DNA from: Minisyncoccota bacterium
Lineage (GTDB): Bacteria; Patescibacteriota; Minisyncoccia; Phycocordibacterales; UBA9973
DNA: 64,000 bases
Direction: 5' to 3'
Assembly: GCA_035353995.1 (NCBI GenBank)
Contig: DAOQAL010000001.1
Location: 308,104-372,103 of the forward strand
Of this stretch, positions 1 to 34,997 are shown one piece after another. The position numbers and the translations under genes are program-made. Position 1 is the stretch's first letter, and the number at the start of each line of letters is the position of its first letter. The notes below the pieces were generated by a model, which was given only the letters and a program-made list of their open reading frames with translations, was not told where the DNA came from and searched no databases.

Positions 1-212
1 TCGACACCAATAATAGGTTTTATTCCTGCTTTTTTTGCAGATTTATAAAATTCAATCGTTGCATACATATTGCCATGGTCTGTAATAGCAAGAGCTGGCA
101 TTTTATATTTTTTAGCAAGAGCAACTAAATCATCAACCTTAGAAAGTCCATCAAGTAGGGAATAATGCGAGTGAGTATGGAGATGCACGAATTTTGCTGT
201 TTCTTTTTCCAT
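1..212 (-). CDS. dnaE: DNA polymerase III alpha subunit, N-terminal PHP domain; partial, continues past the left edge
   Basis: The minus-strand translation starts MEKETAKFVHLHTHSHYSLLDGLSKVDDLVALAKKYKMPALAITDHGNMYATIEFYKSAKKAGIKPIIGV, the classic DnaE PHP-domain start (HxH...SLLDG). The ATG lies at 210-212. Confidence 0.8.
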   Translation of the reverse strand, partial: MEKETAKFVHLHTHSHYSLLDGLSKVDDLVALAKKYKMPALAITDHGNMYATIEFYKSAKKAGIKPIIGV

Positions 213-246
213 TTTCCCTATAATAGCATATTTATTAAATATTCAT

Positions 247-936
247 TTATTTTCTTGAAAACAGATAAGTTGCAATTATGGCTGCAGTTTCACCACGAAG
301 AGTCAAGGTGCCCAAGGAAGCAATTTTAAAATTAAAAGATTTGGCTAGTTTTATTTCTTCCGGCGTCCAACCACCTTCGGGTCCTATCCAAATATTGCGT
401 TTGGATTTGTTTTCTAAAATACATGAATATTTTTCTCCATCTGCATTAAATAAAATATTAAAATCATTTTTTGTCATTTCTAATGCTTGATCAAAATTAA
501 TCGGTTCTAAAATTTCTGGAATAATATTTCTTCCAGATTGTTCAGATGCTTCTTTTGCAATTTTTTCTAATCTGTCTAATCTTAATCCAGTTTTAATTGT
601 TCTGTCAGTAATAATTGGTACTATTTTTGAAACTCCACATTCTGTTGCTTTTTGAACTACCAATTCAAAATTTTCTTTTTTTAAAATAGCACAAAAAAGA
701 GTTGCTTCGATTTCTAATGTTTGAAGTATTTTTTTATCTAAAATTTTTACTAAAACCGAATTTTTGCCGACTCTATTAATTTCAGCCATTACTGAGACTC
801 CTTTACCATTTGAAAGTTCAATTTTTTCTCCAGCTTCTAATTTTAAAACTTTTATTATCTGTGATGCTATATCACCAAAAATTTCTAATTCTGGTTTTGT
901 TAGGTCAAAATTATCTATGAATCTGTGTATTTTCAT
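247..936 (-). CDS. rsmE: 16S rRNA (uracil1498-N3)-methyltransferase RsmE
   Basis: 229 aa with the RsmE C-terminal GPEGGWTPEE motif and a PUA-like N-terminus. Confidence 0.85.
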   Translation of the reverse strand: MKIHRFIDNFDLTKPELEIFGDIASQIIKVLKLEAGEKIELSNGKGVSVMAEINRVGKNSVLVKILDKKILQTLEIEATLFCAILKKENFELVVQKATECGVSKIVPIITDRTIKTGLRLDRLEKIAKEASEQSGRNIIPEILEPINFDQALEMTKNDFNILFNADGEKYSCILENKSKRNIWIGPEGGWTPEEIKLAKSFNFKIASLGTLTLRGETAAIIATYLFSRK

Positions 937-6096: not shown

Positions 6097-7533
6097 ATGA
6101 AAAGATTACTTTTGTTTTCATTAGTATCTCTTTTATTACTATCGTTTCGTATAGCGTTTGCGGATGTAATTATAAATGAAGTAAAATATTCTCCTACAAC
6201 AAAGCAGTGGGTTGAAATTTATAATAATACCGATTCTGATATCGATATCACTACTTATAAAATATTGGATTCGAGTGCATCAACCAATGGTCATTCTGTT
6301 GTTGCTATTGAGGGTGGTACAAACATAATTTCAGCGAATAGTTTTGGAATAATTGCCAAAGTTCCTGATGATTTTACTGGAGTTTCATTTCCTGTATTCA
6401 AGAGTTCTTTGGGGATAAAGGTATCAGGAGATGTTGTTACTCTAAAAAGTAATTCTGGAGAAACTGATTCTGTAACAATAGATGGAACTGCTATTGAAGG
6501 AAATTCTTCGCAATTAGTAAATAATTCTTGGGTATCTGCTGTACCTACTCCAGGTGGGGAAAATTCTGATAGCTCTTCTAGTTCATCTTCAAGCTCGTCA
6601 TCTGAATCTAATTCTTCCTCTAGTTCTAGTAGTAATTCTTCTGGTGGTAGTTCATCTAGTAGATCTTCTTCAAGCACAGAAGAAAAAATAATAAAAAATC
6701 CTACAATTCAATTAAAAATTTTATCAAATACATTGGCTTTTGTAGAACAGCCGTTAGCTTTGAAAGCAAACCTTATTGGATATTCAAATGAAAAATTAGT
6801 TTTAGGAAAACTATTTTGGAACTTTGGTGATGGTAGCTCGTTTGAACAAGTAAACGGTTTTGATAAATTTTCTCATACTTATTTTTATCCAGGTGAATAT
6901 GCTTTAACTGCGGAATATTTTTTAAATAAAAATCATACTGACGAACCTGATGTAGTAAATAAAACAATAATAAAAGTTATACCAATGACGGTTTCCATTT
7001 CAAAAGTTGGTGACTACAAAGATTTTTTTATAGAGCTTACAAATAATTCAAGTTATGACATAGATGTTTCTGGGTGGTATATTCGCACAAGTAAAAATAT
7101 ATTTTTCCTACCGAGAAATAGTATTATTTTGTCTAAAAGACAAATGACAATATCAAGTAAAATAACTGGTTTTATGCTAGGGGATGAAGCAGATTTAAAA
7201 TTATATATGCCCGATGGTAAATTAGTGTATGACTATAATAGTTTTCTTGTTCCAGTTAGGTCATCATATAAAACAAACAATTCTATTAAAAATTCCGATC
7301 AGGAAATAGATAATACAACAATATCTCTAAGTAGTTTCGAAGAACCAGTCATGGCAGAAAATTTATTAGCAAATTCATTATCTAGTGGAAATGTAGAAAG
7401 TGAGAAAAACAATTCTATATTTTTATGGGCATTTGTTTTATTTTTATTTATTTCAGGATTAATTGTATATTTTATTCGTCACAAAAAAGAAAAATTGAAA
7501 ACTGGAGACGATTTTGCTATACTAGACGAATAA
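6097..7533 (+). CDS. secreted protein with two lamin-tail domains, a Ser-rich linker and a C-terminal TM anchor
   Basis: Signal peptide. Two LTD signatures, INEVKYSPTTKQWVEIYN and FFIELTNNSSYDIDVSGWYIR. A poly-Ser tract, a PKD-like FGDGS motif and a C-terminal hydrophobic helix followed by RHKKEK. Confidence 0.7.
   Translation: MKRLLLFSLVSLLLLSFRIAFADVIINEVKYSPTTKQWVEIYNNTDSDIDITTYKILDSSASTNGHSVVAIEGGTNIISANSFGIIAKVPDDFTGVSFPVFKSSLGIKVSGDVVTLKSNSGETDSVTIDGTAIEGNSSQLVNNSWVSAVPTPGGENSDSSSSSSSSSSSESNSSSSSSSNSSGGSSSSRSSSSTEEKIIKNPTIQLKILSNTLAFVEQPLALKANLIGYSNEKLVLGKLFWNFGDGSSFEQVNGFDKFSHTYFYPGEYALTAEYFLNKNHTDEPDVVNKTIIKVIPMTVSISKVGDYKDFFIELTNNSSYDIDVSGWYIRTSKNIFFLPRNSIILSKRQMTISSKITGFMLGDEADLKLYMPDGKLVYDYNSFLVPVRSSYKTNNSIKNSDQEIDNTTISLSSFEEPVMAENLLANSLSSGNVESEKNNSIFLWAFVLFLFISGLIVYFIRHKKEKLKTGDDFAILDE
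6565..6678 (+). repeat. low-complexity poly-Ser/Asn coding tract (AGC/TCT/AGT runs)
   Basis: It encodes SSSSSSSSSSESNSSSSSSSNSSGGSSSSRSSSS. Confidence 0.8.
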
Positions 7534-7554: not shown

Positions 7555-7770
7555 ATGTTCAAAAACTTTTTACTTAAGAAAATGCTTAGGAAGCAAGGTG
7601 TGCCAGATGCTCAAATTGATATGGTTATAAATATGGTGGAAAAAAATCCAGATCTTTTTAAGAAGATTGCAGATGAAATTCAATCAAAAATAAAAAGTGG
7701 TATGGATCAGCAAACAGCTTCTATAGAAGTTATGAAAAAATATGAAGATGAACTAAGAAAATTATCTTAG
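7555..7770 (+). CDS. hypothetical small protein, 71 aa
   Basis: The only support is an ORF with a plausible start; no motif recognised. Confidence 0.3.
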   Translation: MFKNFLLKKMLRKQGVPDAQIDMVINMVEKNPDLFKKIADEIQSKIKSGMDQQTASIEVMKKYEDELRKLS

Positions 7771-7985: not shown

Positions 7986-10577
7986 ATGAAAAAATATTTT
8001 TTGATTAGCTTGGTTTCTATTTTGTTTTTATTTAGTTTAGTGTTTGTATTATCAAATACTTCTTTTGCTCAAGTAGAAAATAGCGCAGAAGGTAAAGTAA
8101 ATTTATGTCATAGGACAGGATCGCCAACGAATCCTTGGGAAGCTATAAGCATTGGTGCAGTCGACAAGGGCATTCATGTAGAACATGGTGATTTTCTTTA
8201 TGGTGGAAGTTTTGATATAAGTGACAAAGTAAATGCTGACAATTGGTGCAATGATGAATATATTCGAAAAAATCCTCCAACTCCAACAACGGTAACGATA
8301 TCAGCCACAAAAATTGTTTGTGGTAATGAATCAGATTTACCAAATTGGGGAAAGGGTGGACCTGATATAACAGTAAATACTGCAACGAATTGGTTAAAAG
8401 ATCATCAATCTTGCAAACTACAGAGTGGTTGGTCCTTCCAGTATGGAGATCAAAATGTAAATAATCCTGGTGATAGTTTTATAGGTGAAGCATCAGATGG
8501 CTGGGAAACATTTGGTCCTACAGACTCATATGGTGTTGCAAATGTAGAAGCAACTATAGAAGATGGAATGACTCGTTTTGATTTGCGTGAAGTTTTGAAA
8601 GATGGTTATATACCATTTACTTATGAAGATGCAACAGACAATTCAAATGATGTTAGTGCTGAATTTTATTGTTCAACAGATGTTTTAAATTATGATAACT
8701 ATGATTATATAACTAGTCCTGTTGCTGGAACAACTTATTATTGTGTAGGATTTAATGTTCCAAAACAATGCGATGTTGTAAGTGATACAACAAATATTGT
8801 TGAAGATGGAACAAACGCAGTAGAGACTTTAAATTATTCTCATCCAACTTGGTATGATGACACTCTTCTTGGTGGTTTAGCTAAATGGATTTGGAGCACT
8901 TTTAAAGTAGAAAATCCAACTCTTGATGAAACAAAAGTTTTTGTAAAGCAATTTAATTTAAATTCAGATCCAATTTCTGCAACTATTGAAGTGGCAGCTG
9001 ATAATGGATTTAAATTGGAAATTAATGGAGATACTATTGTTGATAATTTAACGATTGAAAATAATTATGGATCAGTAGTTTCTTATCCTGTTACGAATTT
9101 AGAATCTGGAACAAATACAATTAAAATGACTGTTAAAAACTTTGCTTTAGGTGGAGGAACTGCTGAAAGCAATCCAGCTGGTGCATTATATAAACTTCAT
9201 ATAGTAGGTGGTGATGATTGTTCTGATGTTAAACCTGTAGACGTTTGTCCAAATATAGATGGTTATCAATTTACTATTCCTGAAGGACTCTATAAAGATG
9301 ATGCAGGCAATTGTGTAAAAAGAGAAATACCACAAGTTTCAAATGTTACGATGTGTAAAAAAGATGTAGCAGGAGCTCCACTTTCTAATTGGCAATTAAT
9401 TCTTGCTGGTGAAAATGTAGGTTCTGTTGAAGTTAAACCAGATGGAACTAATTATTTAATTTCTAATGTTCCTGCTGGAAGTTATGTAGTAAAAGCTACT
9501 GGTCAATATACATATCGTCCTGGAACAGCAGGAGCAGAATATTCAGATTCTGCATATTCCAAACGTGCTCCTACTGATCCTTCATATATAGCAGCTCAGT
9601 CTAATTTATCTCAATCAATATATTTGCCATGGGTAAGAGAAAATAATTTTACTCCTCATGTTGGTTGGCTTGGAATTACAATGAATGATTTATTTACAGA
9701 TTGGGGTTCGATATTTAATTCATCACATATATATGCACTTGGCACAAATACAAGCGATGTAAGCAATATGTCATTTAAAATTTTAGATGACGTATATGGT
9801 GATAATTCTGGTCATATAGATGTTGATGTAAATCATGGTTTTACTGGAATGACAGGAACGGATGGTTGTATAACATTTACAAATGTTCCCTACGGTACAT
9901 ATACAGCTGATGAAATTATAAAAGATGCATGGACTTATGTTTCTGGTCGTGGCGAAGTTGTTGTTGATGAACCAACAGAAAATTTCACAATAGTAAATCA
10001 ATTAACTAATAGCTCAACACCAATTAATGGAGGATGGAGTGAATGGAGTGAAAAAGATACTGCTTGTGGAGTTTCAGGAATTCAAACTCGTACTTGTACA
10101 AATCCTACCCCAGCTAATGGTGGAGCAGATTGTAGTGGTCTTGATGGTGGTAATTCGTCAAAAGAATATACGAACGAAGCTTGTTCACAACCAACTAGAC
10201 ATAACACTAGTGGTAGTATTGTGAATTTTTCACAAGGACGAGTTCTTGGTGAAAGTACAGAAAGTTCATGTGGAATTTACTTGAATAGTTTTATTAAGCT
10301 TGGTCAAAAAAATGATGTATCTGAAGTAAAAAAGCTACAAGAATTTCTTAATGAATATTTAGGAATTAATCTTGTTGTTGATGGTATTTATGGATTGACT
10401 ACTTTTAATGCTGTTAAAGATTTTCAAGTTAAATATGCAAATGAAGTCTTAGCTCCATGGGTTCCACAATTAAAAGATATTTCAGTAGGAACTGGTTATG
10501 TCTATAAAACAACAAAGAGATGGATCAACTTACTCAAATGTCCAGAACTAGAAATACCAATGCCAGTTCTTGATTAA
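7986..10577 (+). CDS. secreted 863-aa protein with a thrombospondin type-1-like repeat and a C-terminal peptidoglycan-binding domain
   Basis: Signal peptide. GGWSEWSEKDTACGVSGIQTRTCTNP is a TSP1 W-S-x-W-S/CSxTCG pattern. C-terminal EVKKLQEFLNEYLGINLVVDGIYGLTTFNAVKDFQ resembles PG_binding_1. Confidence 0.65.
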   Translation: MKKYFLISLVSILFLFSLVFVLSNTSFAQVENSAEGKVNLCHRTGSPTNPWEAISIGAVDKGIHVEHGDFLYGGSFDISDKVNADNWCNDEYIRKNPPTPTTVTISATKIVCGNESDLPNWGKGGPDITVNTATNWLKDHQSCKLQSGWSFQYGDQNVNNPGDSFIGEASDGWETFGPTDSYGVANVEATIEDGMTRFDLREVLKDGYIPFTYEDATDNSNDVSAEFYCSTDVLNYDNYDYITSPVAGTTYYCVGFNVPKQCDVVSDTTNIVEDGTNAVETLNYSHPTWYDDTLLGGLAKWIWSTFKVENPTLDETKVFVKQFNLNSDPISATIEVAADNGFKLEINGDTIVDNLTIENNYGSVVSYPVTNLESGTNTIKMTVKNFALGGGTAESNPAGALYKLHIVGGDDCSDVKPVDVCPNIDGYQFTIPEGLYKDDAGNCVKREIPQVSNVTMCKKDVAGAPLSNWQLILAGENVGSVEVKPDGTNYLISNVPAGSYVVKATGQYTYRPGTAGAEYSDSAYSKRAPTDPSYIAAQSNLSQSIYLPWVRENNFTPHVGWLGITMNDLFTDWGSIFNSSHIYALGTNTSDVSNMSFKILDDVYGDNSGHIDVDVNHGFTGMTGTDGCITFTNVPYGTYTADEIIKDAWTYVSGRGEVVVDEPTENFTIVNQLTNSSTPINGGWSEWSEKDTACGVSGIQTRTCTNPTPANGGADCSGLDGGNSSKEYTNEACSQPTRHNTSGSIVNFSQGRVLGESTESSCGIYLNSFIKLGQKNDVSEVKKLQEFLNEYLGINLVVDGIYGLTTFNAVKDFQVKYANEVLAPWVPQLKDISVGTGYVYKTTKRWINLLKCPELEIPMPVLD

Positions 10578-10637: not shown

Positions 10638-11660
10638 GTGTATAATATAAATATGATTTCTTGGTTAAGAAAATATTTTATTCCGCATGAAGAGAATAGT
10701 CATCGTCCACATTTTTTGCGAAATTATAATATTCGCATGATTCTTGTGATAATTCTTTTTCTAGAAATATTTTCTTTTCTTATACCAACATTAAACTACG
10801 TTAGTCGTTTTGCTTCCGAAAATATGGCAGCTGTTTTACCTGGAGTTCTTTCGTCTTTAACAAATGAAGAAAGACAAGCAGAAAAACTTCCAACTTTGGC
10901 AACAAATGATTTGTTAACAAAAGCAGCAGAAATGAAAGCACAAGACATGGCTACAAATGGATATTTTGCGCACACTAGTCCAGATGGAAAAAGTCCATGG
11001 TATTGGTTTCATCAAGTTGAATATAATTATAAATATGCTGGAGAAAATTTAGCAATAAATTTTACCGACTCAAAAGATGTTACGAATGCTTGGATGGCTA
11101 GTCCTACACATCGCGAAAATATTATGAAGGGAAAATATACAGAAATAGGAACTGGAATTGCAACCGGTATTTTTGAAGGTAGACAAACTATATTTGTAGC
11201 TCAACTATACGGCAGTCAAATTGAAGAAAAACCCATTGTAAAAAATGAAGAACAAAATACTATTGTAAAAAAAGAAAAGCCAGTTGTTACAGAAACAAAA
11301 ACATTTCCGAAAGTTTTAGGAACTGAAACTACAGAAGAAGAAAATACTAAATTAGCAACAGAAGTAAAAGAAGAAACAGTAAAATCTGTCGTTACAGAAG
11401 AAGAGCCAACATTTATGCAAAAGCTACTTACTTCACCACACAATACGACAAATATAATTTTAATTGTTGTTTTTGGAATAGTGCTTCTTTCTTTATTGTT
11501 AAATATTTTTATAAAGATAAAACATCATCATCCTGATTTAGTAACAAATGGTTTATTGATTCTTGTCATTATTGGTGCTTTCTTTGTTGCAAATAATTTT
11601 CTTAGTAAAAATAGAATGGTTATTTTGGACACTTTTAATTTCTCAAGCGAACAACAATAA
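10638..11660 (+). CDS. CAP/SCP/PR1-like (YkwD-like) domain protein with N- and C-terminal TM helices
   Basis: YFAHTSPDGKSPWYWF...GENLA...NAWMASPTHRENIM is the CAP-domain signature; an acidic linker precedes the C-terminal hydrophobic segment. Confidence 0.7.
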   Translation: MYNINMISWLRKYFIPHEENSHRPHFLRNYNIRMILVIILFLEIFSFLIPTLNYVSRFASENMAAVLPGVLSSLTNEERQAEKLPTLATNDLLTKAAEMKAQDMATNGYFAHTSPDGKSPWYWFHQVEYNYKYAGENLAINFTDSKDVTNAWMASPTHRENIMKGKYTEIGTGIATGIFEGRQTIFVAQLYGSQIEEKPIVKNEEQNTIVKKEKPVVTETKTFPKVLGTETTEEENTKLATEVKEETVKSVVTEEEPTFMQKLLTSPHNTTNIILIVVFGIVLLSLLLNIFIKIKHHHPDLVTNGLLILVIIGAFFVANNFLSKNRMVILDTFNFSSEQQ

Positions 11661-14170: not shown

Positions 14171-17056
14171 ATGAAAGAATATAACCACAAAAAAATTGAA
14201 TTAAAAGTTCAAAAAGAATGGGAAAAGAAAAAAAGTTTTCAAGCTAAAGAAAAAAAAAGCAAAAAATTTTATGGCTTGATTGAGTTTCCATACCCATCTG
14301 GTGATGGACTTCATGTAGGACATCCTAGACCTTATATTGGTATGGATGTAATTTCAAGAAAAAAAAGAATGGAAGGATATAATGTTCTTTTTCCGATTGG
14401 CTGGGATGCATTCGGTTTGCCAACAGAAAATTATGCTATTAAAACTGGTATTCATCCAAAAATAGTTACTAAAAAAAATACTGATAATTTTCGAAGACAA
14501 ATAAAAATGTTGGGAATTTCTTTTGATTGGTCACGAGAAATAAATACTACAGATCCTTCTTATTATAAATGGACTCAATGGTTGTTTTTACAATTTTTTA
14601 AAAAAGGACTTGCATATAAAAATAAAAGTGAAATTAATTGGTGTCCAAAAGATAAAATTGGTTTAGCAAATGAAGAAGTTGTAGATGGAAGATGTGAACG
14701 TTGTGGAACGTTGACTGAGAAAAAAGAAAAAGAACAATGGATGCTTGCTATAACAAAATATGCAGACAGGTTAGATAAAGATTTAGATTTAGTTGATTAT
14801 CCTGAACGTGTAAAATTATCACAAAAAAACTGGATAGGGAAATCAGAGGGAAGTGAAATAGAATTTTCAATTAAAAACTCAACTGAAAAAATAAAAGTAT
14901 TCACGACTCGCGCAGATACATTGTTTGGTGTAACTTATGTTGTCCTTGCACCAGAACATCCCCTCTTGTCAAAGACCGTCTTTGACAGATTAGGAAATAA
15001 GAAAGAGGTTGAAGAGTATATTAAAAAAGTAAAAAATAAATCAGATTTAGAAAGAACAGAAAATAAAGAAAAAAGCGGAGTAGAATTAAAAGGTATAAAA
15101 GCTATTAATCCTGCCAATGGTGAAGAGATTTCAGTTTGGGTTGCTGATTATGTTTTGTCTCAATATGGAACCGGTGCGGTTATGGCAGTACCAGCACACG
15201 ACGAAAGAGATTTTGAATTTGCAAAAAAATATGGTTTGGAAATAAAACAAGTAATAATGAGTTGCGAAAATGATACTAAAAATCCTCCTCGTGATGGATT
15301 TGAAGAAGTGAAAAGAGACACTATAATTGTTTTTTTAAAAAATAAAGAAACTGAGAAGTATGCCTTACTTAATTGGCATAATAGTCTTGAAGGAATAACA
15401 ACGGCTATAATGGGAGGAATAGAAATTGGACAAACTCCTGAGCAAGCAGTTTTGACAGAAATCCAAGAAGAAGCATCTTTAACTGGAATAAAAATAACAA
15501 AAAAACTTAGATGGATTACAGCTGCGAAATATTGTGCTTCTCATAAAAATCAAAATCGTTGCGCTATTTCGCATGTTTATTTAGCAGAAATTGATAACAT
15601 AAAAAATCAAGGCGAGATAGAGGAATATGAAAAAAATACACATACATTAATTTGGGTAGATAAAAAAGAAGTTTTAAATAAATTAACGCCAAATCATCAG
15701 AAATTTATTTGGGAACAATTATTTAATGAAACAGCTTTGGTTGATGATGGAATTTTAATGAATTCGGGAAAATTTAATGGTATGGATTCTGAAGAAGTTA
15801 GAGCAAAAATTACAGAATTTGTTGGAGGAAAAATTGTTACTAAATTTAAATTGCGTGATTGGGTTTTTTCACGTCAACGATATTGGGGTGAACCTATACC
15901 AATTGTGAATTGCCCAAAATGTGGTTTAGTTCCTTTGAAAGAAAAAGATTTGCCATTAAAATTACCTGATGTAAAAAGTTATAAACCAACAAATACTGGA
16001 GAATCTCCACTTGCTGGAATTTCAAAATGGGTAAATACAAAATGTCCTAAGTGTAAAGGAAAAGCAAAAAGAGAAACTGACACAATGCCAAACTGGGCTG
16101 GAAGTTCATGGTATTATTTGCGTTACACTGATCCAAAAAATAAAAATAAATTTGCCGATATGAAAAAATTAAAATATTGGCTTGGCAAAAATCCTAAGCA
16201 TGGAGGAGTAGATTGGTATAACGGAGGAATGGAGCATACAACATTGCATCTTTTGTATTCTCGTTTTTGGCATAAATTTTTGTATGATTTAAAATTAGTT
16301 CCAACTGCAGAACCGTATGCAAAGAGAACCAGCCATGGAATGATTTTAGGTGCTGGTGGTGTGAAGATGTCAAAGTCTCTTGGTAATGTTGTGAACCCAG
16401 ATCAGATTGTAAAAACTTATGGTGCAGATACGTTAAGAGTTTATGAAATGTTTATGGGTCCATTTGAAGATGCTGCTGTTTGGAATACAGAAAGTATTAT
16501 TGGTTCAAGAAGATTTATAGAAAAAGTTTGGAGGATTGGAGAAAAAATAAAATCTTCTAGCTCTCACACTACTGAGAGAAAAAAGAATTCTTCTAATTCT
16601 ATTGTTAAACTTCTACACAAGACGATTAAAAAAGTTTCTGAAGATATTGAAGCAATGCGTTTCAATACAGCAATTTCATCTATGATGATTTTGACAACAG
16701 AGATGGAAAAAGCAGAATCAGTTTCAAAAGATGACTATAAAAAGTTTTTACAAATACTTTCTCCTTTTGCACCACACATTGCAGAAGAAATTTGGAATTC
16801 ATTTGGAGAAAAAAAGAGTATTAATTATTCAAAATGGCCATCTTGGGATGAAAATTTAATAAAAGATGAAGAAATAAAAATTATAATTCAAGTAAATGGA
16901 AAAGTTAGAGCAGAAATTATGATTTCTGCAGACGAAAATGAAGAAAATATCAAAAAAAATGCAACAATGCATCCTTCAGTACAAAAATTTATCGAAAATA
17001 GGGAAATCAAGAGGATAATTTACGTAAAAAACAAACTTGTAAACTTAGTAATTTAA
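14171..17056 (+). CDS. leuS: leucyl-tRNA synthetase carrying an inserted Nudix-like domain
   Basis: HIGH (HVGHP) and KMSKS motifs; editing domain with TTRADT and GTGAVMAVPAHDERDFEFA. At aa ~365-525 there is a ~140-aa insertion relative to E. coli LeuRS holding a Nudix box, GGIEIGQTPEQAVLTEIQEEASL. Confidence 0.95.
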   Translation: MKEYNHKKIELKVQKEWEKKKSFQAKEKKSKKFYGLIEFPYPSGDGLHVGHPRPYIGMDVISRKKRMEGYNVLFPIGWDAFGLPTENYAIKTGIHPKIVTKKNTDNFRRQIKMLGISFDWSREINTTDPSYYKWTQWLFLQFFKKGLAYKNKSEINWCPKDKIGLANEEVVDGRCERCGTLTEKKEKEQWMLAITKYADRLDKDLDLVDYPERVKLSQKNWIGKSEGSEIEFSIKNSTEKIKVFTTRADTLFGVTYVVLAPEHPLLSKTVFDRLGNKKEVEEYIKKVKNKSDLERTENKEKSGVELKGIKAINPANGEEISVWVADYVLSQYGTGAVMAVPAHDERDFEFAKKYGLEIKQVIMSCENDTKNPPRDGFEEVKRDTIIVFLKNKETEKYALLNWHNSLEGITTAIMGGIEIGQTPEQAVLTEIQEEASLTGIKITKKLRWITAAKYCASHKNQNRCAISHVYLAEIDNIKNQGEIEEYEKNTHTLIWVDKKEVLNKLTPNHQKFIWEQLFNETALVDDGILMNSGKFNGMDSEEVRAKITEFVGGKIVTKFKLRDWVFSRQRYWGEPIPIVNCPKCGLVPLKEKDLPLKLPDVKSYKPTNTGESPLAGISKWVNTKCPKCKGKAKRETDTMPNWAGSSWYYLRYTDPKNKNKFADMKKLKYWLGKNPKHGGVDWYNGGMEHTTLHLLYSRFWHKFLYDLKLVPTAEPYAKRTSHGMILGAGGVKMSKSLGNVVNPDQIVKTYGADTLRVYEMFMGPFEDAAVWNTESIIGSRRFIEKVWRIGEKIKSSSSHTTERKKNSSNSIVKLLHKTIKKVSEDIEAMRFNTAISSMMILTTEMEKAESVSKDDYKKFLQILSPFAPHIAEEIWNSFGEKKSINYSKWPSWDENLIKDEEIKIIIQVNGKVRAEIMISADENEENIKKNATMHPSVQKFIENREIKRIIYVKNKLVNLVI

Positions 17057-17147: not shown

Positions 17148-20100
17148 ATGTCAGAAAAACATAAGAATAAAAGAGTTTTACAACTAATAAGAAATATTTT
17201 ACAAATACTTAAACCAAAGTTGTCTTTTCACTATATTGCATACACTACTTTAGTAGCTTTGGTTGTTTTTTCTTTAGTAAATTTAGTTGGTGCTACAACT
17301 CCAAACCCTGGTCACTCATGGTCTGAAGTTGGAGATGGTGTTTTTGCAGTAACAAATAATCAAACAGCAATTCGCACTTACACTTTTCCAGATGCAAATG
17401 CAACTGTACTTACTACTAACGCACTTGTTACTGTTGCACAAGGTGGAACTGGTGCAAATACTTTAACAGGAATTTTAATTGGAAATGGAACTTCTGCTTT
17501 TACATCTGTAGCACTTACTGCAGGACAATCAATTCGAATGAATTCAGGTGGAACAGCTTATGAAGGTTTTACTCCTGGAACAGGAAATGTTAATTCTATC
17601 TCTGTCGCAACTTCAAATGGTTTTGCTGGTTCATCTTCTGGTGGTTCAAATCCAATCTTAACTTTATCTACTACTATCTCTGGAATGTTGAAAGGAAATG
17701 GAACTGCAATCAGTGCAGCAACAGATGGTTCTGATTTTCTTTCTTCTTCGACAGGATGGAAATTAAATGGACAAGCTCTCGGCACAAAAAAAACTCTTGG
17801 GTCTACTGATGGATATGCAATTGGTTTTCTAACTAATAATTCAGAAAGAATGACAATACTTTCTGGTGGTAACATTGGTATCGGTGTAACTTCACCGACA
17901 GCAGTTTTACATTTGAAAGCTGGTACTGCAACAGCAGGAACTGCACCATTAAAATTTGCATCAGGAGTATTACTAACAACTCCAGAAACAGGAGCAATGG
18001 AATTTGATGGAACTAATTTATATTTCACACCAGTTGATTTACGAAAGACAATTGCTTTTACAGAAGACATTGCATCTGGCTACGTTCCATACACAGGTGC
18101 AACTGCTGACGTTAATCTTGGAGCTTTTGATTTAACAACTACAGATCTTAATGTAAGTGGTATCGCTAATTTTACTGGAAGCGTTGCTGTTAACACTGAC
18201 CCAGACAACAACACTAGTGGTTTTGAATATGGAAATGGTTATGATCCATCTTCAAGTTATTATTACAATGAAAGATTTCGAGTAAATAGTTTTATGGAAA
18301 CACCACATATGTCTTTAGGTGTTGCTTCAAACTTTTTACTATATTCTGAAGATTTTTCAAATGCCGCTTGGGTAAAAACAAGTATAGGTTCAGTTAGTGC
18401 AAATGGTGTTAATGCTCCTAATGGATCAACTACTGCAGAAAATATTCCAGCTGGTTCTGCTTCAACTGCTAATATAGCTCAAACAATTACAAACAGTACT
18501 ACAGGATACTGGTCTGCTGGTGTTTGGGCAAGAACTCAAAGTGGAACAGCTACTATAGATTTGCAAATTGATAATGGATCAGCAGAAATTGGAACTCCTA
18601 AAACAGTTACAGTGGATACAAAATGGCGCTTCTTTGGTGTTGCTCAAAATTTTAGTCCTTCTTCTAATACAACAAAAACTTTTAAAATAACTTCTGGAAC
18701 AACAGCAATTTCTTTATGGGGTGCAAGAATGAATCAAGGTGAAACGATAAATTCATATCGTGCTACAACAAGTTCAAATTCTTCTACTCCTACATTTGGT
18801 GCATTTTTCAACAACACAACAATTTACGGTACTCTTTCTGGAAGTGCAAGTTCAGCTGGCTATGCTACTTATTCAAATAGTGGAATTTATGGTGGAGTAA
18901 CATTATCAAATACTACTGGCAATGCTGGAAAGTGGGAATTATTAGGATATGTAACTTTAACATATAACTCTACTTATGATTATGGACATTCTTGGGATTA
19001 TGAAGTCAACCTGAAAGAAATTAATAATGATGATTCAGCAATTTCACAAGTTGATTATGAGGATATTACTTTAAAACTTAAAGGAAATTTAGCAGAAGCA
19101 ACTAGTACTGCTACTTTCAATTCCGCTGTACCAACTTTCTCTATTGATGTTTCTGGTGCTACGCAATTAACTTCTAGTGATTTTGCAGCTGTTGTTTATT
19201 CGACAAGTACTTCAACTAAGGTAATTAGATATTATGTAAAATTGCCAGCTGCTAATTCTCATTACATGATTGTACCTATTAACTATCGTGGAGTTAGCTA
19301 TAACAGTACATTAGGTATAAGTACTTCTTACGTTTCTTGGACAACTTCTTCTAGTACTGCTGTGATAACAACCTTACCAACTCCACCTGCTGGTCAAGGT
19401 TCTGTAGTAAATGGAAATATTCTTTACACAACATACAAAGGCAATGGAATATTTAGTGGACTATTAAGTGGTACAGCTTTGAAATCTGCTAAGTGGTATC
19501 CAGGTGCTGACTCTACAACTGCAATTCAAATTAATAAAGCAGATGGTTTAACAAATATTATAAATATTGATACAACAAATGGAAGAATGGGTATCGGTAC
19601 AACTTTACCAACAGCATTACTAAATCTAGCAGCCGGTACTGCATCAGCAGGAACTGCTCCACTCAAATTTACATCAGGAACATTATTAACTACACCAGAG
19701 GATGGATCAGTAGAATTTGATGGAACTCACTATTATGTAACAGTTGGTTCTACTAGATACCAATTAGATCAACAAGCTCCAGGTGGAGGTATGGTGTACC
19801 CAGGATCAGGAATTGCAGTCTCAACAGGTTCTGCTTGGGGAACTTCAATCAGTGGAACATCTTCACAATTTGTAAAAGGTGATGGAAGTTTGGATTCAAA
19901 TACATACTTAACAACTTCTTCTGCTTCTTCAACTTATGTTCCTTACACTGGAGCAACAAGTGCAGTAGATTTAGGTGTTCATAATCTTACTGTTGATACA
20001 AATACATTGTTTGTAGATTCAACAAATCATAGAGTTGGAATCGGAACAACAAGTCCTACATCTAAGTTATATGTTAGTAGTGGAGGCGGAGTTAATTCTG

Positions 20101-23100
20101 GCATTGTTATTAAATCTGATGGAACAACTGGGACATATGCATCATTAGATTATGTAAATAAAAACAATGTAGCATTTCAGACAGGCTTATATGATTCTGG
20201 TAATGCTTTCTTTTATATGCCTTCAACTGGAAATAATATTGGATTCTATACGAACGATCTTGAAAGAATGACTATAGCAAAAACAGGTAATGTCGGAATT
20301 GGTACAACGAGTCCAACAGTTCCATTAGACATCACTGGAGCGGTAAACATATCAACTGGAAATTTAGATTTAGACAATACAACAAATGCAAATCAATATG
20401 GAGTGATCACAAAAAATGGGATCAGATTCATTCACAATTTTAATTATGGAAACAACGGTACTGTAACGACAGAAGGACATAATTTATTTATTGGAGAAAA
20501 TGCCGGTAACTTTACGATGGGATCAACGGCAAATTATGCTAATTATTCTTCAAGCAATGTTGGAATCGGTTATTCTACGTTAAGTTCGAATACAACTGGA
20601 TACTATAACTCTGCTGTAGGAATTTATGCTCTTTATTCTAACACCACAGGATACTCTAACTCTGCAATAGGAACACATGCTCTTATGCTTAATACCACAG
20701 GGTACGCTAACTCTACAGTAGGAAATGATGCTCTTTATAATAATACTTCAGGGTACAAGAACTCTGTAATTGGAAGTACAGCTCTCTTTAATAATACAAC
20801 AGGATACTCTAACTCTGCGATGGGATATGAAGCCGGCCGCTATGTTACAGGAAATGTAGCTAACACAACCAGTGATTATAGTATATACCTTGGTGCTAAT
20901 ACCAAAGCTCTTGCTGATGATGATCAAAATGAAATTGTAATAGGTTACGATGCTACGGGTGCCGGTTCAAACACTGCAGTAATAGGTAGCAGTTCTTTAA
21001 CTTCTGTATACCTCGGAAGTTCTACACCTAGCGCTAGACTATACACTAAAGGTATAACGTTATCTGCAGGTACAGCAACTGCTGGAACTGCTCCATTGAA
21101 GTTCACATCAGGAACATTGTTAGGAACAACGGAAGCAGGAACAATGGAATTTAATGGAACACATTTATACTTTACAGTAGCAAATAGCGGAACAAGATAT
21201 CAATTAGATCAACAAGCTCCAGGTGGAGGTATGGTTTACCCAGGAGCAGGTATTCCAATTTCAACAGGTTCTGCTTGGGGAACTTCAATCAGTGGAACAT
21301 CTTCACAATTTGTAAAAGGGGATGGAAGTTTGGATTCAAATACATACTTAACAACTTCTTCTGCATCTTCAACTTATGTTCCATATACTGGAGCAACAAG
21401 TGCAGTAGATTTAGGTGTTCATAATCTTACTGTTGATACAAATACATTGTTTGTAGATTCAACAAATCATTTTGTTGGTATTGGAACAACAACACCGAGT
21501 GTAAAACTAAATGTACTTGGTGTAACTGCGTTGCAATCTGGTGATGCTGATGGTGCTCTACGGATTGGTGCTGATGTTTTGGCTACTACACTTTCATCAA
21601 ATGTAAGAAAATTGGGAAGAGTAACAGCTCCTTCTTATAGTAATACATATTATTATTCATTGTTTTCTGCTGATAGTGATACGGGTGGTGATGGAATAGA
21701 ATTTGGAGGTAGAGCAGGAGCATTAAATTCATCTCCAACATATATTTCATTTGCTACAACTCCAACAGCAGGAAGTAGCGCTGGAAATGCGGAACGAATG
21801 AGAATAATAGGTAATGGAAACATTGGTATCGGCATAGCTTCACCAACAGCTAGATTACATTTACCAGCTGGTACAGCAACAGCAGGAACTGCTCCACTAA
21901 AATTTACATCAGGAACATTGTTAGGAACAACGGAAGCAGGAACAATGGAATTTAATGGAACACATTTATACTTTACAGTAGCAAATAGCGGAACAAGATA
22001 TCAATTAGATCAACAAGCTCCAGGTGGAGGTATGGTTTACCCAGGAGCAGGAATTCCAATTTCAACAGGCAGTGCTTGGGGAACTTCAATCAGTGGAACA
22101 TCTTCACAATTTGTAAAAGGGGATGGAAGCTTAGATTCAAATACATATTTAACTTCTGCTTCTTTGTCTGGTTATGTTCCTTATACTGGTGCAACCACAA
22201 ATGTAGTTCTCGGAGCAAATACTCTTTCAACAACTTCAGGTTTAATTTCTCCAAAACTTTATCCTGCAAGTGATTCAACAACAGCAATACAATTTAACAA
22301 AGCAGATGGAACAACAAATATTTTAAATATTGATACGACGAATTCTAGAGTTGGAATTGGGACAACAAGTCCAAGTGTTAAATTAGAAGTAGCGGGACAA
22401 GGTAAATTCATAAGTACAACTTTTCCAGTTCTTGATATAGTTAGAGATACAACGACTACTGCTGGTGGAGTTTATGGTGGTGCTAAATTAGAGAGAATTA
22501 TGACTGGCGGAACATCAGTCAATGGTACTGGTATAGGTTTTTATTTTAAGAATCCAGACTCAGCAGGAAATTCTACTTTTTCAGGTATTTTTGGTTCAGC
22601 ACTTTCAAGCGTAACAGATGGAAGTGAAGTCGGAGATGTTATTGTTTCTGCTGCTTGGCAAGGAGGAGATCCTTATTTAAATCAACACTTAGTTGTTAGA
22701 GCAACCGGCGCAACGACAGGTAACGTTTTGGTTCCGAATGGTAATGTCGGAATTGGAACAACTTCACCAAATCAACAATTAGAAATTACTCAAAACTTTA
22801 GACTTCCTTCTACAACTTATAATAGTGGAAATCCTTATGGGATAATTTACAAAGGAACAAATCCATTCATTCATGATTTCAATTATGGAAACAACGGTAC
22901 TGTAACGACAGAAGGACATAATTTATTTATTGGTGAAAGTGCAGGTAACTTTACAATGGGATCAACGGCAACATTATTAAGTCAATCATCAAACAATATT
23001 GGAATAGGGTATAATTCTCTTTCTGTAAATACTACTGGTTATGGCAATACAGCTATCAGCAATTATTCTTTGGAATCAAATACAACAGGTACTCAAAACT

Positions 23101-26100
23101 CTGCTATTGGTTATAAATCTCTGTCTAGTAATACTACTGGTAGCGTTAACTCTGCTTTTGGACCTTATTCTCTTTCTGGTAATACTACTGGTAGTAACAA
23201 TTCTGCTTTTGGATCTTATTCTCTTTCTGGTAATACTACTGGTATCTTAAATGTCGCTTTTGGTCAAAATGCTCTTTCTGGTAATACTACTGGTAATTAT
23301 AACTCTGCTTTAGGATATAACGCTGGTAGTTTTATTGCTGATGGTTCAACATCGAATACTTTTGGTTCAAATAGTTTATTTTTGGGCAGTTATTCAAGAG
23401 CTCTTGCTAATAATCAAACAAATCAAATTGTAATTGGTTATAATGCTATCGGTAACGGAAGCAATACAGCAACAATTGGAAACAGTTCTATATTAAGAAC
23501 ATATCTAAGAGGAGTAAATCTAGCAGCCGGTACTGCATCAGCTGGAACTGCTCCACTAAAATTTACATCAGGAACATTATTAGGAACACCTGAGACAGGA
23601 GCGATGGAATTTGATGGTTCTCACTATTACATAACAATAGGTTCAACTCGTTATCAATTAGATCAACAAGCTCCAGGTGGGGGTATGGTTTATCCAGGAG
23701 CGGGCATTCCAGTTTCGACAGGTTCAGCTTGGGATACATCTAAAACGGCACCTACGGGAGACATCGTTGGAACAACTGATACACAAGATCTTACTAACAA
23801 AACATACAATGGACTTTCTTTGTTAGGAAACAATACTGATTTTAATTCTTTTGTTGGTTACAATACTGGTCTTAATATTCCAAGCGGAGCACAATGGAAC
23901 TCTTTCTTTGGTTATGAAGCAGGAAAGGGAAGCGCAAGTACAAGTTATAATTATTCTAATACTGGAATAGGATATCAATCTTTGTATTCCATTACAGTTG
24001 GTAGTAATAACTCTGCACTAGGAAATAAGTCTCTGTACTATAATACTTCAGGATGGTCTAATACTGCAGTAGGAGATAGTTCACTTTCTTCTAATACTGA
24101 AGGTTATCTTAATGTTGCATTAGGTGTTGATTCTTTATCAAGTAATATTACAGGTTACGATAACTCTGCTATCGGTAGTTCTTCTATGTACTCTAACACT
24201 ACAGGTTACTATAACATCGCAATAGGAGGTGGTTCTATGTATTATAATACTACTGGAAATTATAACTCTGCTACAGGATATTCTTCTTTATCAAATAACA
24301 CAACAGGTAATATTAATTCTGCACTAGGATATGTAGCCGGATACTTTATAGCTGACAACTCAACGCCAAACACTACATCAGATTATAGTTTGTATTTAGG
24401 TGCATATACCAAAGCTCTTGCAGATAATGATCAAAATGAAATTGTAATTGGTTATGACACAACAGGTAATGGAAGCAACACAGCAACAATTGGAAACAGT
24501 TCTATATTAAGAACATATTTAAGAGGAGTAAATTTAGCAGGAGGTACAGCAACTGCAGGAACTGCTCCATTAAAATTTACATCAGGAACATTGTTAGGAA
24601 CTACAGAAGGTGGAGCAATGGAATTTGATGGTTCACATTTGTACTTCACAATAGCTGATAGCGGAACAAGATATCAATTAGATCAACAAGGAGGTATGGT
24701 TTATCCAGGAGCAGGTATTGCAATTTCAACAGGAAGTGCTTGGGGAACATCAATATCAGGAACATCCTCACAGTTTGTAAAAGGGGATGGAAGTTTAGAT
24801 TCAAATACATACTTAACAACTTCTTCTGCTTCTTCAACTTATGTTCCTTACACTGGAGCAACCACAGATGTAAATCTTGGAACACATACTCTTGCTTCAG
24901 GTTCAATAGATATCGCTACAGGTAATTTAGATTTAGATAACACTACTTATGCAAATCAATATGGATTGATTACCAAAAATGGAACCAGATTCATTCATAA
25001 TTTTTCCTACGGATTAAATGGAAATAATGTAACCCCAGAAGGTCGCAATTTATTTATTGGTGAAGGTGCCGGTAATTTTACGATGGGATCGGATGCAACT
25101 TACTATAGTTATTCTTCAAACAATATTGGAGTCGGTTATTCTACATTAAGTTTCAATACAACTGGATACGGTAACTTTGCGGTAGGAAGTTATGCTCTTT
25201 ATTACAACACCACAGGATACGGTAACTCTGCAATAGGAAAAAGTGCTCTGTTCTCTAATACTGAAGGATTCTTTAACTCTGCATTAGGAGATTCTGCTCT
25301 TAAATCTAATACTACAGGATATAGAAATATCTCAATGGGAAGTTACGCTCTTAATTCAAACACCACAGGAAGCCATAATTCTGCATTAGGATATAATACT
25401 GGTCGCTATATTGCAAACGGAAGCACTGGTAATACCACTAGTGACTACAGTGTATATCTTGGTGCTATGACAAAAGCTCTTGCCGACGATGATCAAAACG
25501 AAATTGTAATCGGTTACAACGCCACCGGTGCCGGTTCAAACACTGCCGTAATCGGAAACAGTTCTGTAACTTCGGTATATCTCGGAAGCTCTACTGCTGG
25601 CGCAAGACTCTACACTAATGGCGTAACGTTATCTGCCGGTACAGCAACAGCAGGAACTGCACCACTAAAATTTACATCAGGAACATTACTAGGAACAACA
25701 GAAGGTGGAGCAATGGAATTTGATGGTTCACATTTGTACTTTACTATAGCTGATAGCGGAACAAGATATCAATTAGATCAACAAGGAGGTATGGTTTACC
25801 CAGGATCAGGAATTGCAATCTCAACAGGAAGTGCTTGGGGAACTTCAATCAGTGGAACATCTTCACAATTTGTAAAAGGGGATGGAAGTTTGGATTCAAA
25901 TACATACTTAACCTCTGCATCTTTGTCTGGTTATGTTCCTTACACTGGTGCAACCACAAATGTAGTTCTCGGAGCAAATACTCTTTCAACAACTTCAGGT
26001 TTAATTTCTCCAAAACTTTATCCTGCAAGTGATTCAACAACAGCAATACAATTTAACAAAGCAGATGGAACAACAAATATTTTAAATATTGATACGACAA

Positions 26101-29100
26101 ATGGAAGAGTGGGAATGGGTACGACGAGTCCATCATCAATGCTTCATATTTATGATACTACTGCTAGCGGAACATTTGCTGATGGATTATATTTACAAGC
26201 AGGAAATGATGCAAATGCAATTAGGGTACGTTTGAAAAATACTAATTCTGATTTTTTTATTAACGCATACGGAACTGGAGCAATCGGTGCATTAGCAAAT
26301 TCAATTGGATTTTTTGCTAGTGGAAGTTCAACTAATGATTTTATTATTGGGCATACTGGAACAACTTCTGGAAATGATATTAGATTTTTTACAAATAATG
26401 ATTATTCAGATGCAAATGAATTAGTGATTACACAAGGCGGACTTGTTGGAATGGGAACATCAACTCCAACTGGAAAATTAAATATAATAAATACATCAGA
26501 ACAATTACGTATTGGATATAGTTCTAGTGTTTATTATTCAACTACAATTGATTCTACAGGGACAGTTATATTTGATTCTACTGGTGGCGCTTCATCTCGA
26601 TTTTCATTTGCAGACAATCTAGGTATCGGAACAACTTCACCAAGCAATATACTTTCTCTAGGTGGAACAACAGCTAGAACAATTTGGATGGAACGTAACA
26701 CAACAGCAGGAACTGCAGGACAGGCACTAACTTTGTTCTCTGGTGGTGCATATTCTGGTGGAACTAATTTGAATGGTGGAGATTTATATTTAAAATCTGG
26801 TATTTCTACTGGTACTGGATCATCATCTATGCATTTTCTTACTGCAACAGCAGGAAGTAGTGGAACAGCTGACAATACTCCAACCGAAAAAATGACTATT
26901 CTTGCTAATGGTAAAGTAGGTATTGGAAATACAAATCCATCATCAAAATTAACAGTTACTGATGTGAATAGTATTTTCTTCGTTCCAAACCAGGGAGCTA
27001 CTGGTGAAATTCCAGCAGGAACTGCAATGTCTACAAGTTCTAACTTTACATTTTTGGGAGATGGAACTGGTGGAGTTGGAAATGGAGTTATGGTTGCTTA
27101 TTACAATCAAACACAATGGCTTTCCGCCGTACAGACTGCAAACGTTAGTAGTGGTTATGGAAATTTATTGTTAATGAAATCTGGTGGATCTGTAGGTGTA
27201 GGTACTTCTGCTCCAACAGCTAGATTACATTTAGGAGCAGGATCAGCTACAGCAGGAACTGCTCCATTAAAATTTACATCAGGAACATTACTAACAACAG
27301 CTGAGGCAGGAGCAATGGAATTTGATGGAACTCACTATTATGTAACAGTTGGTTCTACTAGATACCAATTAGATCAACAAGCTCCAGGTGGAGGTATGGT
27401 TTATCCAGGAGCAGGTATTCCAATTTCAACAGGTTCTGCTTGGGGTACATCTATATCAGGAACATCTTCACAGTTTGTAAAAGGGGATGGAAGTTTAGAT
27501 TCAAATACATACTTAACAACTTCTTCTGCATCTTCAACTTATGTTCCATATACAGGTGCAACCACAAATGTAGTTCTCGGAGCAAATACTCTTTCAACAA
27601 CTTCAGGTTTAATTTCTCCAAAACTTTATCCTGCAAGTGATTCAACAACAGCAATACAATTTAACAAAGCAGATGGGACAACAAATATTTTAAATATTGA
27701 TACGACAAATGGGAGAGTGGGAATTGGGACAACAAGTCCTACTAAAAAATTAGAAGTATCTGGTAATTTAGGTGCTGGAGGAATATTTAATGTTAACTCT
27801 TCGACTCCAGCAGATTTCGTTGGTTTGGAAACCTCTTCTGGTCGTTCAGCTATTGTTTTCAACAATTCAAATTCCAGGATGTATTATGATTCTTCAGCAA
27901 ATACTTTTAATATGTTTCCAGTTGTTGGAACATATGATGACCCATCAAGTTGGAATTATTCAACGATGTCTTATGCCTTAACTAGTCAAACTCTATATTT
28001 GAATGGTGCTGGAGGAGTTGAAATTGGTCAAGGAGGTTTGATTTCTACAAAAATAGTTGATACAACTACTGATTATCAAAATTATACTGGTTCTACTTTC
28101 TCCATGTGGAAGAGATTAGGAAACAACACAGTAAATACATTAAATGGATTGAACTTAAATTATGGTGGATATTGGAGTGCTGCTGGAACTATTACTGATT
28201 CTGCTGGAATATACTCTGCTTTTGCAGCTGCTGATTCTTCGGCTGCTAATTTTACAAATGTTTATGGTATTAAAACAAGTTTTACTAATGTAGGAACTGG
28301 TACAATTACAAATCAATATGGTATTTATATTCCATCTGATTCAGTTGCTACAAATGTATATGGTATATCATCAAATATTGCTAGTGGAACTAATAAATGG
28401 AATATGTATGTTGCAGGTACAGCTAATAACTATTTTGCCGGCAATGTTGGAATCGGAACGACGACCCCACAAGCTGCATTAAATGTAATTGGAGACGTAA
28501 TGTTAGGATACAATTCAACAGGGCAAAAAATTTATCCATATTATTATAGTGCTACGAATTATAATGCAATTTCTTCTGATAGCTCAGGTGCTATGACATT
28601 TATCACTGGTGTTACATCTCCTTCAGAAAGAATGAGAATTGATAATTCTGGTTATGTTGGAATAGGTAATGCTTCTCCAGCAACGACTCTTGATATTACA
28701 GGAGCAGGTGGCTCTCCTTCTGGCACACCATCTTTTCCTGTTAGAGTTGTGTCTGGAACGAATACTAATCCAGGTATGATTTTTGAACGAAGTGATGCAA
28801 GTAAATTTGTTAACCTTTGGACGGGAAGTGGAGCAGCAATATTAGGATTTACTGATACTGCTTCAAGGATGGCTATTGGAACTTATACTTACGCAGATAG
28901 ATATTCTACTGGTTTCCCAACAAAAGAAATTTTGTCTCTTCTTCCTAGTGGAAATGTTGGAGTAGGAGTTACAAATCCTACAGCAAAACTTCATTTAAAA
29001 GCATCTGATGGGACAGCAGGAAGTGCATCATTAAAAATTACAGATGGAACATTGCTATCAACTCCAGAAGCAGGAGCAATAGAATTTGTTGGAACAAGTC

Positions 29101-32719: not shown

Positions 32720-32843
32720 TATTAAAATTATATTTTAACGAAAAGTTATCAACATGTAATCCACTTAGCGATTTCTTTTTAAAAAAGATATGTTACAATT
32801 TATATTGTATAAAAGTTAATAGTTTATTATTAAAATATTTTTT

Positions 32844-33899: not shown

Positions 33900-33918
33900 T
33901 AAATAATTAATTATAACA

Positions 33919-34977: not shown

Positions 34978-34997
34978 TTATTATTTATTTTAATTTT

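Follow-up and report, generated by a model that had tools for sequence, protein, structure and literature searches.

A predicted secreted Paceibacterota protein that pairs a four-cysteine thrombospondin type-1 repeat with a C-terminal peptidoglycan-binding module

Thrombospondin type-1 repeats (TSRs; Pfam TSP_1, PF00090) are represented among solved structures by animal proteins such as UNC5B, UNC5D and thrombospondin-1 (TSR2-3; PDB 6OOL, 5FTT and 1LSL), and TSP1 figures in a review of domain transfer as a domain of animal type that apicomplexans acquired (PMC3417536). Solved PG_binding_1 domains (PF01471) include those of endolysins and cell-wall hydrolases (7RUM, 4XXT and SleB, 6TCI), and stalks of the CnaB/prealbumin-like fold are carried by Gram-positive pilins and MSCRAMM-type adhesins (SpaA, SpaD, RrgB, BcpA and Cpa). 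Here we compare these systems with one protein encoded in a 64,000-nucleotide stretch of DNA (the window; assembly GCA_035353995.1, contig DAOQAL010000001.1, positions 308,104 to 372,103) from a Minisyncoccota bacterium. The open reading frame (ORF) at 7986..10577 of the forward strand runs from ATG to stop and specifies 863 amino acids (aa); exact look-up returned the entries HNW71640.1 / HPT17879.1, both annotated "hypothetical protein". An earlier note, made from the letters of this stretch, had proposed that the protein combines a TSP1 repeat with a C-terminal PG_binding_1 domain, and the two peptides that it quoted are present in the translation (GGWSEWSEKDTACGVSGIQTRTCTNP...DCSG at aa 682-718 and LGQKND...VKDFQ at aa 772-814).

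Comparison with all PDB chains by phmmer placed the repeat among animal TSRs, with matches to UNC5B (E 1.2e-8), UNC5D (1.9e-6), the thrombospondin-1 TSRs (6.7e-6 to 1.8e-5) and C8 beta (1.3e-3), and with 40-46% identity to the UNC5 TSRs over ~45 residues. When the whole protein served as query, TSRs were the only significant matches and the PG-binding endolysin domain ranked below them. The repeat shares with its animal counterparts the WSxWS strand, the TQTRTCTNPxPxxGGxxC core, a length of ~55 residues and the positions of Cys2-Cys6 and Cys3-Cys4. Residues of the Trp-Arg stack are present as W684-S-E-W687 and as R701 within TQTRTC, and the Trp of W-x-x-W is kept in 147-154 of the 161 prokaryotic repeats that we surveyed. 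The Pfam check suggested in the earlier note gave a divided answer, in that PG_binding_1 scored above its threshold whereas TSP_1, with a gathering score of 21.6, fell short of it on the full protein (18.2 bits, E 0.003) and equalled it on the isolated segment (exactly 21.6 bits). A lack of any profile match to TSP1 or PG_binding_1, named in the same note as the outcome that would count against it, did not arise.

The canonical cysteine pattern is retained only in part. The CSxTCG box reads KDTACG in the window repeat, and with Lys in place of the first Cys the C-S-x-T-C-G spacing invoked in the earlier note is not intact, although the repeat itself stands. In an alignment of Paceibacterota relatives with canonical six-cysteine repeats (A3), the Cys1 column is occupied by Lys690 and the Cys5 column by Tyr728, while Cys2, Cys3, Cys4 and Cys6 are kept as C694, C704, C716 and C733, four of the six canonical cysteines; one residue is inserted after CG relative to animal TSRs. 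In the TSRs of thrombospondin-1 (structure 1LSL), C1-C5 is one of three disulfides, the others being C2-C6 and C3-C4. The window repeat would thus have one disulfide fewer, and we infer the pairs C694-C733 and C704-C716.

To place this loss we used the 161 repeats, which come from 80 prokaryotic loci. Both C1 and C5 are Cys in 104 repeats and both are replaced in 45, with Lys/Tyr (15) and Gln/Tyr (9) among the replacements; just 12 repeats hold a single Cys of the pair, several of them truncated. True homologs of the TSR fold would be expected to lose C1 and C5 as a unit, as seen here. The repeats with Lys, Gln or Arg paired with Tyr are almost confined to Paceibacterota loci, and among the Paceibacterota copies the W-x-x-W, R, four-cysteine and K/Y positions are strongly conserved. 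One locus of this subclass (L002) has no Pfam TSP_1 match at E<=1e-4, whereas canonical prokaryotic copies score 27-178 bits, so that Pfam under-detects the subclass. The window repeat aligns readily with canonical six-cysteine prokaryotic repeats that pass Pfam strongly, for example with 43-190 bits in L006, L047 and L073. On this sequence evidence we regard the repeat as a genuine, cysteine-reduced TSR homolog and as a coherent two-disulfide derivative of the fold.

The proposed C-terminal PG_binding_1 domain was borne out. Its Pfam score, 25.1 bits for the whole protein and 28.8 bits for the C-terminus taken alone, exceeds the gathering score of 23, and the C-terminal 119 aa matched the wall-binding domain of the endolysin 7RUM with E 6.5e-7, ahead of weaker PDB matches to 5TV7 (3e-3), 4XXT (1.4e-2) and SleB 6TCI (0.46). 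The core, at aa 779-815 (nt 10320-10430), has the helical bundle and the D-G-hydrophobic-hydrophobic-G-x-x-T motif of the endolysin and hydrolase domains, here as D-G-I-Y-G-L-T-T. Unlike those domains it has no hydrolase partner and is embedded in a longer, lineage-specific and conserved module of ~115 aa, with a GxVLG(A/E)ST lead-in and a PW...TGYVYKTT..IN extension, which nearly always forms the C-terminal end of large beta-sandwich proteins. Cys762 and Cys852, each at least 90% conserved, would close the extension as a Cys-Cys clasp. In nearly all family members the module is preceded by a GxV(L/A)G(A/E)(S/T)T motif, which could be a processing site, a glycosylation site or a plain linker. 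This 'GRVLGEST'-type motif is often duplicated, and it recurs in acidic linkers before C-terminal transmembrane (TM) anchors (homologs P0003-P0120).

When 1.84 billion cluster representatives were scanned for the module with HMMER, 4,675 proteins passed E<=1e-3 and 2,513 passed E<=1e-10. Among the 137 representatives newly retrieved, the module ends no more than 15 residues from the C-terminus in 122. Eighteen homologs extend beyond it, and in 14 of these the extension comprises an acidic linker, a single TM helix and a basic tail, an arrangement that would set the module next to the membrane of the producer itself. BLAST coverage across 120 homologs is uneven along the protein: aa ~100-260 are covered in 117, aa ~260-415 in ~98 and aa ~755-863 in ~97, the middle of the protein in ~30 and aa 681-740 in ~15. 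Modules A and B, described below, recur as independent units in varying number and order (A-A-B, B-A, A-A-A). By hidden Markov model, just six of the 120 homologs contain a TSR, a TSR occurs in six of 137 other representatives that bear the PG-binding module, and TSR and PG-binding module stand together at five of the surveyed loci (L001, L008, L009, L074 and L080). The closest collinear relatives (P0003, P0027 and P0018) match aa 1-672 and ~740-863 and have other modules in between, which indicates that the TSR is an exchangeable cassette in the family's variable slot. The TSR is thus a real domain, but as one interchangeable cassette it does not define the protein. By its sequence relationships the protein falls in a large family of Paceibacterota proteins, which are built from shuffled modules and end in a single 115-aa PG-binding module.

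Toward the N-terminus, the sequence reads as a Sec-type signal peptide, positions -3 and -1 being occupied by small residues, in agreement with the proposal that the protein is secreted, and 97 of the 120 homologs have an N-terminal hydrophobic stretch. The small domain at aa 29-95 gave no Pfam or PDB match and is common to only ~25 of the 120 homologs. Module A, present in 117 of them, has no Pfam family; its cysteines lie at 112, 143, 229, 253 and 262, K109 is invariant and E202 and N257 are near-invariant, at positions that resemble an isopeptide triad. An AlphaFold2 (AF2) model of modules A and B (predicted local distance difference test score, pLDDT, 88; predicted TM-score, pTM, 0.80) returned both pilin-like and PA14/CBM/lectin-like matches in a fold search, and in this model the jelly roll of module B matches known sugar-binding domains. 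Module B is only 10-20% identical to the PA14 domain of MpIBP, the ice-binding RTX adhesin of Marinomonas primoryensis, and to the N-terminal sugar-binding domains of GH2 and GH78 enzymes, and the window protein differs from MpIBP in having no RTX repeats, no type I secretion system (T1SS) signal and no catalytic domain. The CxNIxGxQ...C motif of the loop that follows module B also occurs in P0026, P0003 and P0013.

The stalk region scored 29.2-32.9 bits against Pfam SpaA (29.2 on the full protein; gathering score 23.1), and the protein also shows the pilin-like fold expected of SpaA/CnaB-type domains. The stalk region also gave a CarboxypepD_reg-like Pfam match at aa 460-506 and a weak match to the BcpA pilin 3RKP, and an insert at ~aa 505-590 had no domain match in the Pfam and PDB searches. 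K599, E643 and N671 (nt 9780-10001) are placed as in a CnaB isopeptide triad, and a 'REVLKDGYIPF' motif resembles the SpaA 'E..AP.GY' motif. Two sites, K109/E202/N257 in module A and K599/E643/N671 in the stalk, are thus candidates for an intramolecular Lys-Asn isopeptide bond with a catalytic Glu. The protein has 18 Cys, an even count per module once Cys262 of module A is grouped with Cys412 of module B, which matches expectation for an oxidized extracytoplasmic protein; the mature form has a computed mass of 90.9 kDa and pI (isoelectric point) of 4.4.

With Gram-positive pilins and MSCRAMM-type adhesins the protein shares the CnaB/prealbumin-like stalk, the Lys/Glu/Asn triad-like positions and an adhesive tip-type module. 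It differs from the pilins in having no LPxTG, no pilin motif and no adjoining sortase gene, with anchoring predicted to proceed through non-covalent peptidoglycan binding instead. A [LIV]Px[TSA][GAN] motif is absent from the whole protein, and its C-terminus (...CPELEIPMPVLD) has no hydrophobic tail. We found no membrane anchor in the protein, and Pfam gave no SLH, LysM or choline-binding match on the full-length sequence. Pfam, NCBIfam and PDB searches detected no catalytic domain in any segment; the NCBIfam scan returned sub-threshold noise alone (SleB and FlgD).

Domain identities, family structure and conservation together lead us to favor, as the probable though by no means secure account, a secreted, lectin-like adhesin that would be tethered to the wall non-covalently, with a CnaB/SpaA stalk presenting the PA14/CBM-like module and the TSR. 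Following Sec export and cleavage of the signal peptide, the C-terminal 115-aa PG_binding_1 module would bind the producer's own peptidoglycan and fix the C-terminus in the wall. The CnaB/SpaA-type beta-sandwiches would form a stalk, to which disulfides and intramolecular isopeptide bonds probably lend stiffness, and this stalk would project two candidate ligand-binding modules outward, the PA14/CBM-like lectin domain and the four-cysteine TSR. The protein would thus most likely act as a lectin-like adhesin, with glycans or proteins of a partner cell, a host cell or a surface as its targets. The set of modules (a CnaB/SpaA pilin-like fold, a PA14/CBM-like sandwich and no enzyme domain) fits a wall-tethered adhesin, and the best available evidence for the predicted orientation, with the module in the producer's own wall and the N-terminal modules facing outward, comes from the TM-tailed homologs.

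Several observations weigh against this account. Most PG_binding_1 domains belong to wall hydrolases, and foreign peptidoglycan could be their target. With a pI of 4.2 the TSR is acidic, and it carries one stacking Arg where many animal TSRs carry two or three; the basic-groove glycosaminoglycan binding of animal TSRs is therefore not to be assumed, and their heparin/glycosaminoglycan-binding mode is probably inapplicable here. The AF2 model of the TSR alone, built from alignment A3, shows two long antiparallel strands at moderate confidence (pLDDT 73), and although the top 33 Foldseek matches in the PDB were all TSRs, each was non-significant (E 0.04-3, TM-score ~0.4), so that the model is consistent with the TSR fold and does not constitute independent proof of it. 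These E-values, together with the presence of four of six cysteines and a full-length Pfam score below the gathering score, are what could be cited for a chance or convergent Cys/Trp-rich motif with no true TSR behind it. We consider such a coincidence very improbable, since the phmmer matches to solved TSRs, the ready alignment to canonical prokaryotic repeats and the uniform identity of the top structural matches all argue against it, and since the two absent cysteines are exactly one known disulfide pair that is lost jointly across the surveyed repeats.

The remaining alternatives accept the domains and reassign their role. Were the PG_binding_1 module to grip the peptidoglycan of a host or prey cell, with the lectin-like module and the TSR recognizing other envelope components, the protein would bridge an episymbiont to its host; the closest solved relatives of the module are indeed endolysin and wall-hydrolase domains that target peptidoglycan, Patescibacteria are described in the literature as episymbionts, and TSR proteins also occur in metagenome-assembled genomes (MAGs) labelled Bdellovibrionales and Rickettsiales and in DPANN, all host-dependent lineages. 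This host-directed role is nonetheless unlikely: Pfam and NCBIfam showed no lytic domain in the protein, the paralogs with a TM anchor right behind the module (14 of 18) put that module at the membrane and wall of the producer itself, the module is nearly always at the extreme C-terminus as an anchor would be, and the peptidoglycan of a Gram-negative host would not be accessible. We likewise hold it improbable that the protein is a structural envelope or coat protein, part of an acidic beta-sandwich outer layer that is protective or variable, with shuffling driven by evasion of phages or predators and with no specific ligand for the TSR or the lectin-like module. Such a layer would accord with a very large, heavily shuffled family that shares one common anchor, with the acidity of the mature protein and with the unrelated modules that fill the TSR slot in the closest relatives, so that no single cassette is essential. 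Against it, PA14/CBM-like and TSR modules bind ligands wherever they have been studied, and the conservation of the W-x-x-W, R, four-cysteine and K/Y positions in the Paceibacterota TSRs implies selection on the fold. The wall-tethered adhesin thus remains the account that we prefer.

The earlier note had called TSP1 repeats rare in bacteria, a statement that did not hold up for this lineage. We scanned one genome per GTDB species with a single narrow pattern, RTCTNPxP[AVL][NYH], back-translated, and obtained 111 matches, of which 100 were confirmed by tblastn and 80 retained. By record title, 47 of the 80 loci are Patescibacteria (Paceibacterota, Nomura-, Yanofsky-, Moranii- and Magasanikbacteria, others, and 'Saccharibacteria'-labelled bins); the remaining 33 comprise 2 DPANN archaea, 5 unclassified records and 26 other bacteria, including Bdellovibrionales, Rickettsiales, Planctomycetales, Gammaproteobacteria, Omnitrophota and Myxococcales. 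The partner domains of these TSRs are typically bacterial (DUF11, Big_7, LamG, VWA, He_PIG and the type IV pilin N-methylation motif). We take TSRs to be fairly common in Patescibacteria. The 72-aa TSR segment as query returned only 7 short fragments from 9 candidates and is uninformative on distribution. The ORFs at four loci in MAG bins labelled Thermodesulfovibrionia and Rickettsiales (L047, L054, L045 and L051) are almost purely canonical TSRs and score very strongly for TSP1_spondin and TSP1_ADAMTS; in L047, 8 canonical TSRs were the only features detected. Some loci outside the Candidate Phyla Radiation (CPR), such as L047, could be genuine or could reflect eukaryotic contamination of the bins.

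In the literature searched we found no description of type-1 TSRs in CPR bacteria or other prokaryotes, and one CPR-related match concerns type-3 repeats. A further difference from animal TSRs lies in the bacterial host, since bacteria are not known to have the C-mannosylation and POFUT2 O-fucosylation machinery. Two points seem to us modestly novel: Paceibacterota have a coherent TSR subclass with two predicted disulfides, and TSRs are spread broadly among prokaryotes. The recurrence in Patescibacteria of a domain usually called animal-type, in a coherent four-cysteine form that scores at or below the Pfam threshold, is of evolutionary interest. Taken together, these observations could be read as a sizeable and essentially undescribed pool of prokaryotic TSRs, centered on host-dependent lineages (Patescibacteria, DPANN and MAGs labelled Bdellovibrionales and Rickettsiales), that serve as cell-to-cell attachment modules, with Paceibacterota having their own under-detected two-disulfide Lys/Tyr subclass. 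On this view the window protein would serve as an adhesin for host attachment, its TSR helping to recognize the partner, and the high similarity to UNC5-type repeats would reflect inter-domain transfer in one direction or the other. We offer this wider synthesis tentatively and regard it, as a whole, as rather doubtful.

Every cultivated member of the Patescibacteria is described as an episymbiont, and little is known of the molecules with which these bacteria bind their hosts (PMC11623550). Beyond type IV pili, the literature likewise says little about how ultra-small CPR bacteria recognize their hosts and attach to them. A family of at least 2,513 clusters with a shared C-terminal module looks like the lineage's generic display of binding modules on the wall, so that its members are reasonable candidate attachment factors and the adhesin idea is a reasonable one for the window protein. 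As a single gene it appears ordinary, a hypothetical surface protein in which both flagged domains are real and which belongs to a large, little-studied family; its overall kind, a modular wall-binding bacterial surface protein, is already known. Features of the protein and its immediate neighbors are collected in Table 1.

Table 1. Predicted features of the 863-aa protein and adjoining genes, in window coordinates
Feature	Position (nt)	Residues (aa)	Strand	Basis or remark
Upstream secreted neighbor	6097-7533		+	Lamin-tail domain, long poly-Ser linker, PKD-like domain, C-terminal TM helix
Signal peptide	7986..8069	1-28	+	MKK, 19-residue hydrophobic core, SFA/Q cleavage site; read from sequence
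N-terminal small domain	8070..8270	29-95	+	Two Cys (41, 88)
Module A, CnaB/pilin-like beta-sandwich with inserted helical loop	8271..8771	96-262	+	Fold matches of model
Module B, putative carbohydrate-binding module	8772..9233	263-416	+	Galactose-binding-like / PA14-like jelly roll
Cys-bounded loop CPNIDGYQFTIPEGLYKDDAGNC	9234..9332	417-449	+	Linker motif recurring in homologs
Stalk region, SpaA/prealbumin-type domain(s) with long insertion	9333..10001	450-672	+	Pfam SpaA
TSR, four-cysteine subtype	10020..10190	679-735	+	Pfam profile, PDB matches, alignment, model
Linker with family motif G-R-V-L-G-E-S-T	10191..10268	736-761	+	Motif conserved across family
C-terminal PG-binding module and stop	10269..10577	762-863	+	Pfam PG_binding_1, 7RUM match
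Downstream CAP/SCP-domain membrane protein	10638..11660		+	Pfam CAP E 1e-17

The producer is a member of Candidatus Paceibacterota (CPR / Patescibacteria), an uncultivated ultra-small bacterium known as a MAG. Products of neighboring genes (YchF, GAPDH, LeuRS and the lamin-tail-domain protein) map to this same MAG. The window has a GC content of ~30%, housekeeping genes flank the target (GAPDH, split transketolase, PfkB, YchF, Sua5 and LeuRS), and a MurJ gene at 41014-42696 indicates that the genome makes peptidoglycan; given these ordinary neighbors, MurJ and the Paceibacterota MAG, the gene is unambiguously bacterial and from a CPR organism that makes peptidoglycan. With another secreted protein encoded upstream and the CAP/SCP-domain membrane protein downstream, the target is part of a small run of three envelope proteins. 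A CAP/SCP homolog also lies directly 3' of a TSR and PG-binding gene at two other patescibacterial loci (L009, from 6232, and L074, from 6882), so that the two genes could form a functional pair or merely a conserved gene order. In a scan for promoters and terminators, sites were no more frequent than in shuffled sequence and no terminator was found.

A small ORF of ~71 aa (MFKNFLLKKMLRKQGVPDAQIDMV...), read by eye, lies at ~7555-7770 on the forward strand within the 452-bp gap 5' of the target. Farther downstream, a giant forward-strand ORF of 4,856 aa at 17148-31718 has a C-terminal Bact_surface_Ig-like domain (aa 4784-4854) as its sole Pfam match and lies in a stretch of higher GC (0.35-0.37 against ~0.30); it is followed at 31730-37836 by six consecutive ORFs of 300-352 aa, none of them matched by Pfam. 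The LeuRS ORF (14171-17056, forward strand, 961 aa) carries a NUDIX domain match at aa 382-513, right behind the editing domain.

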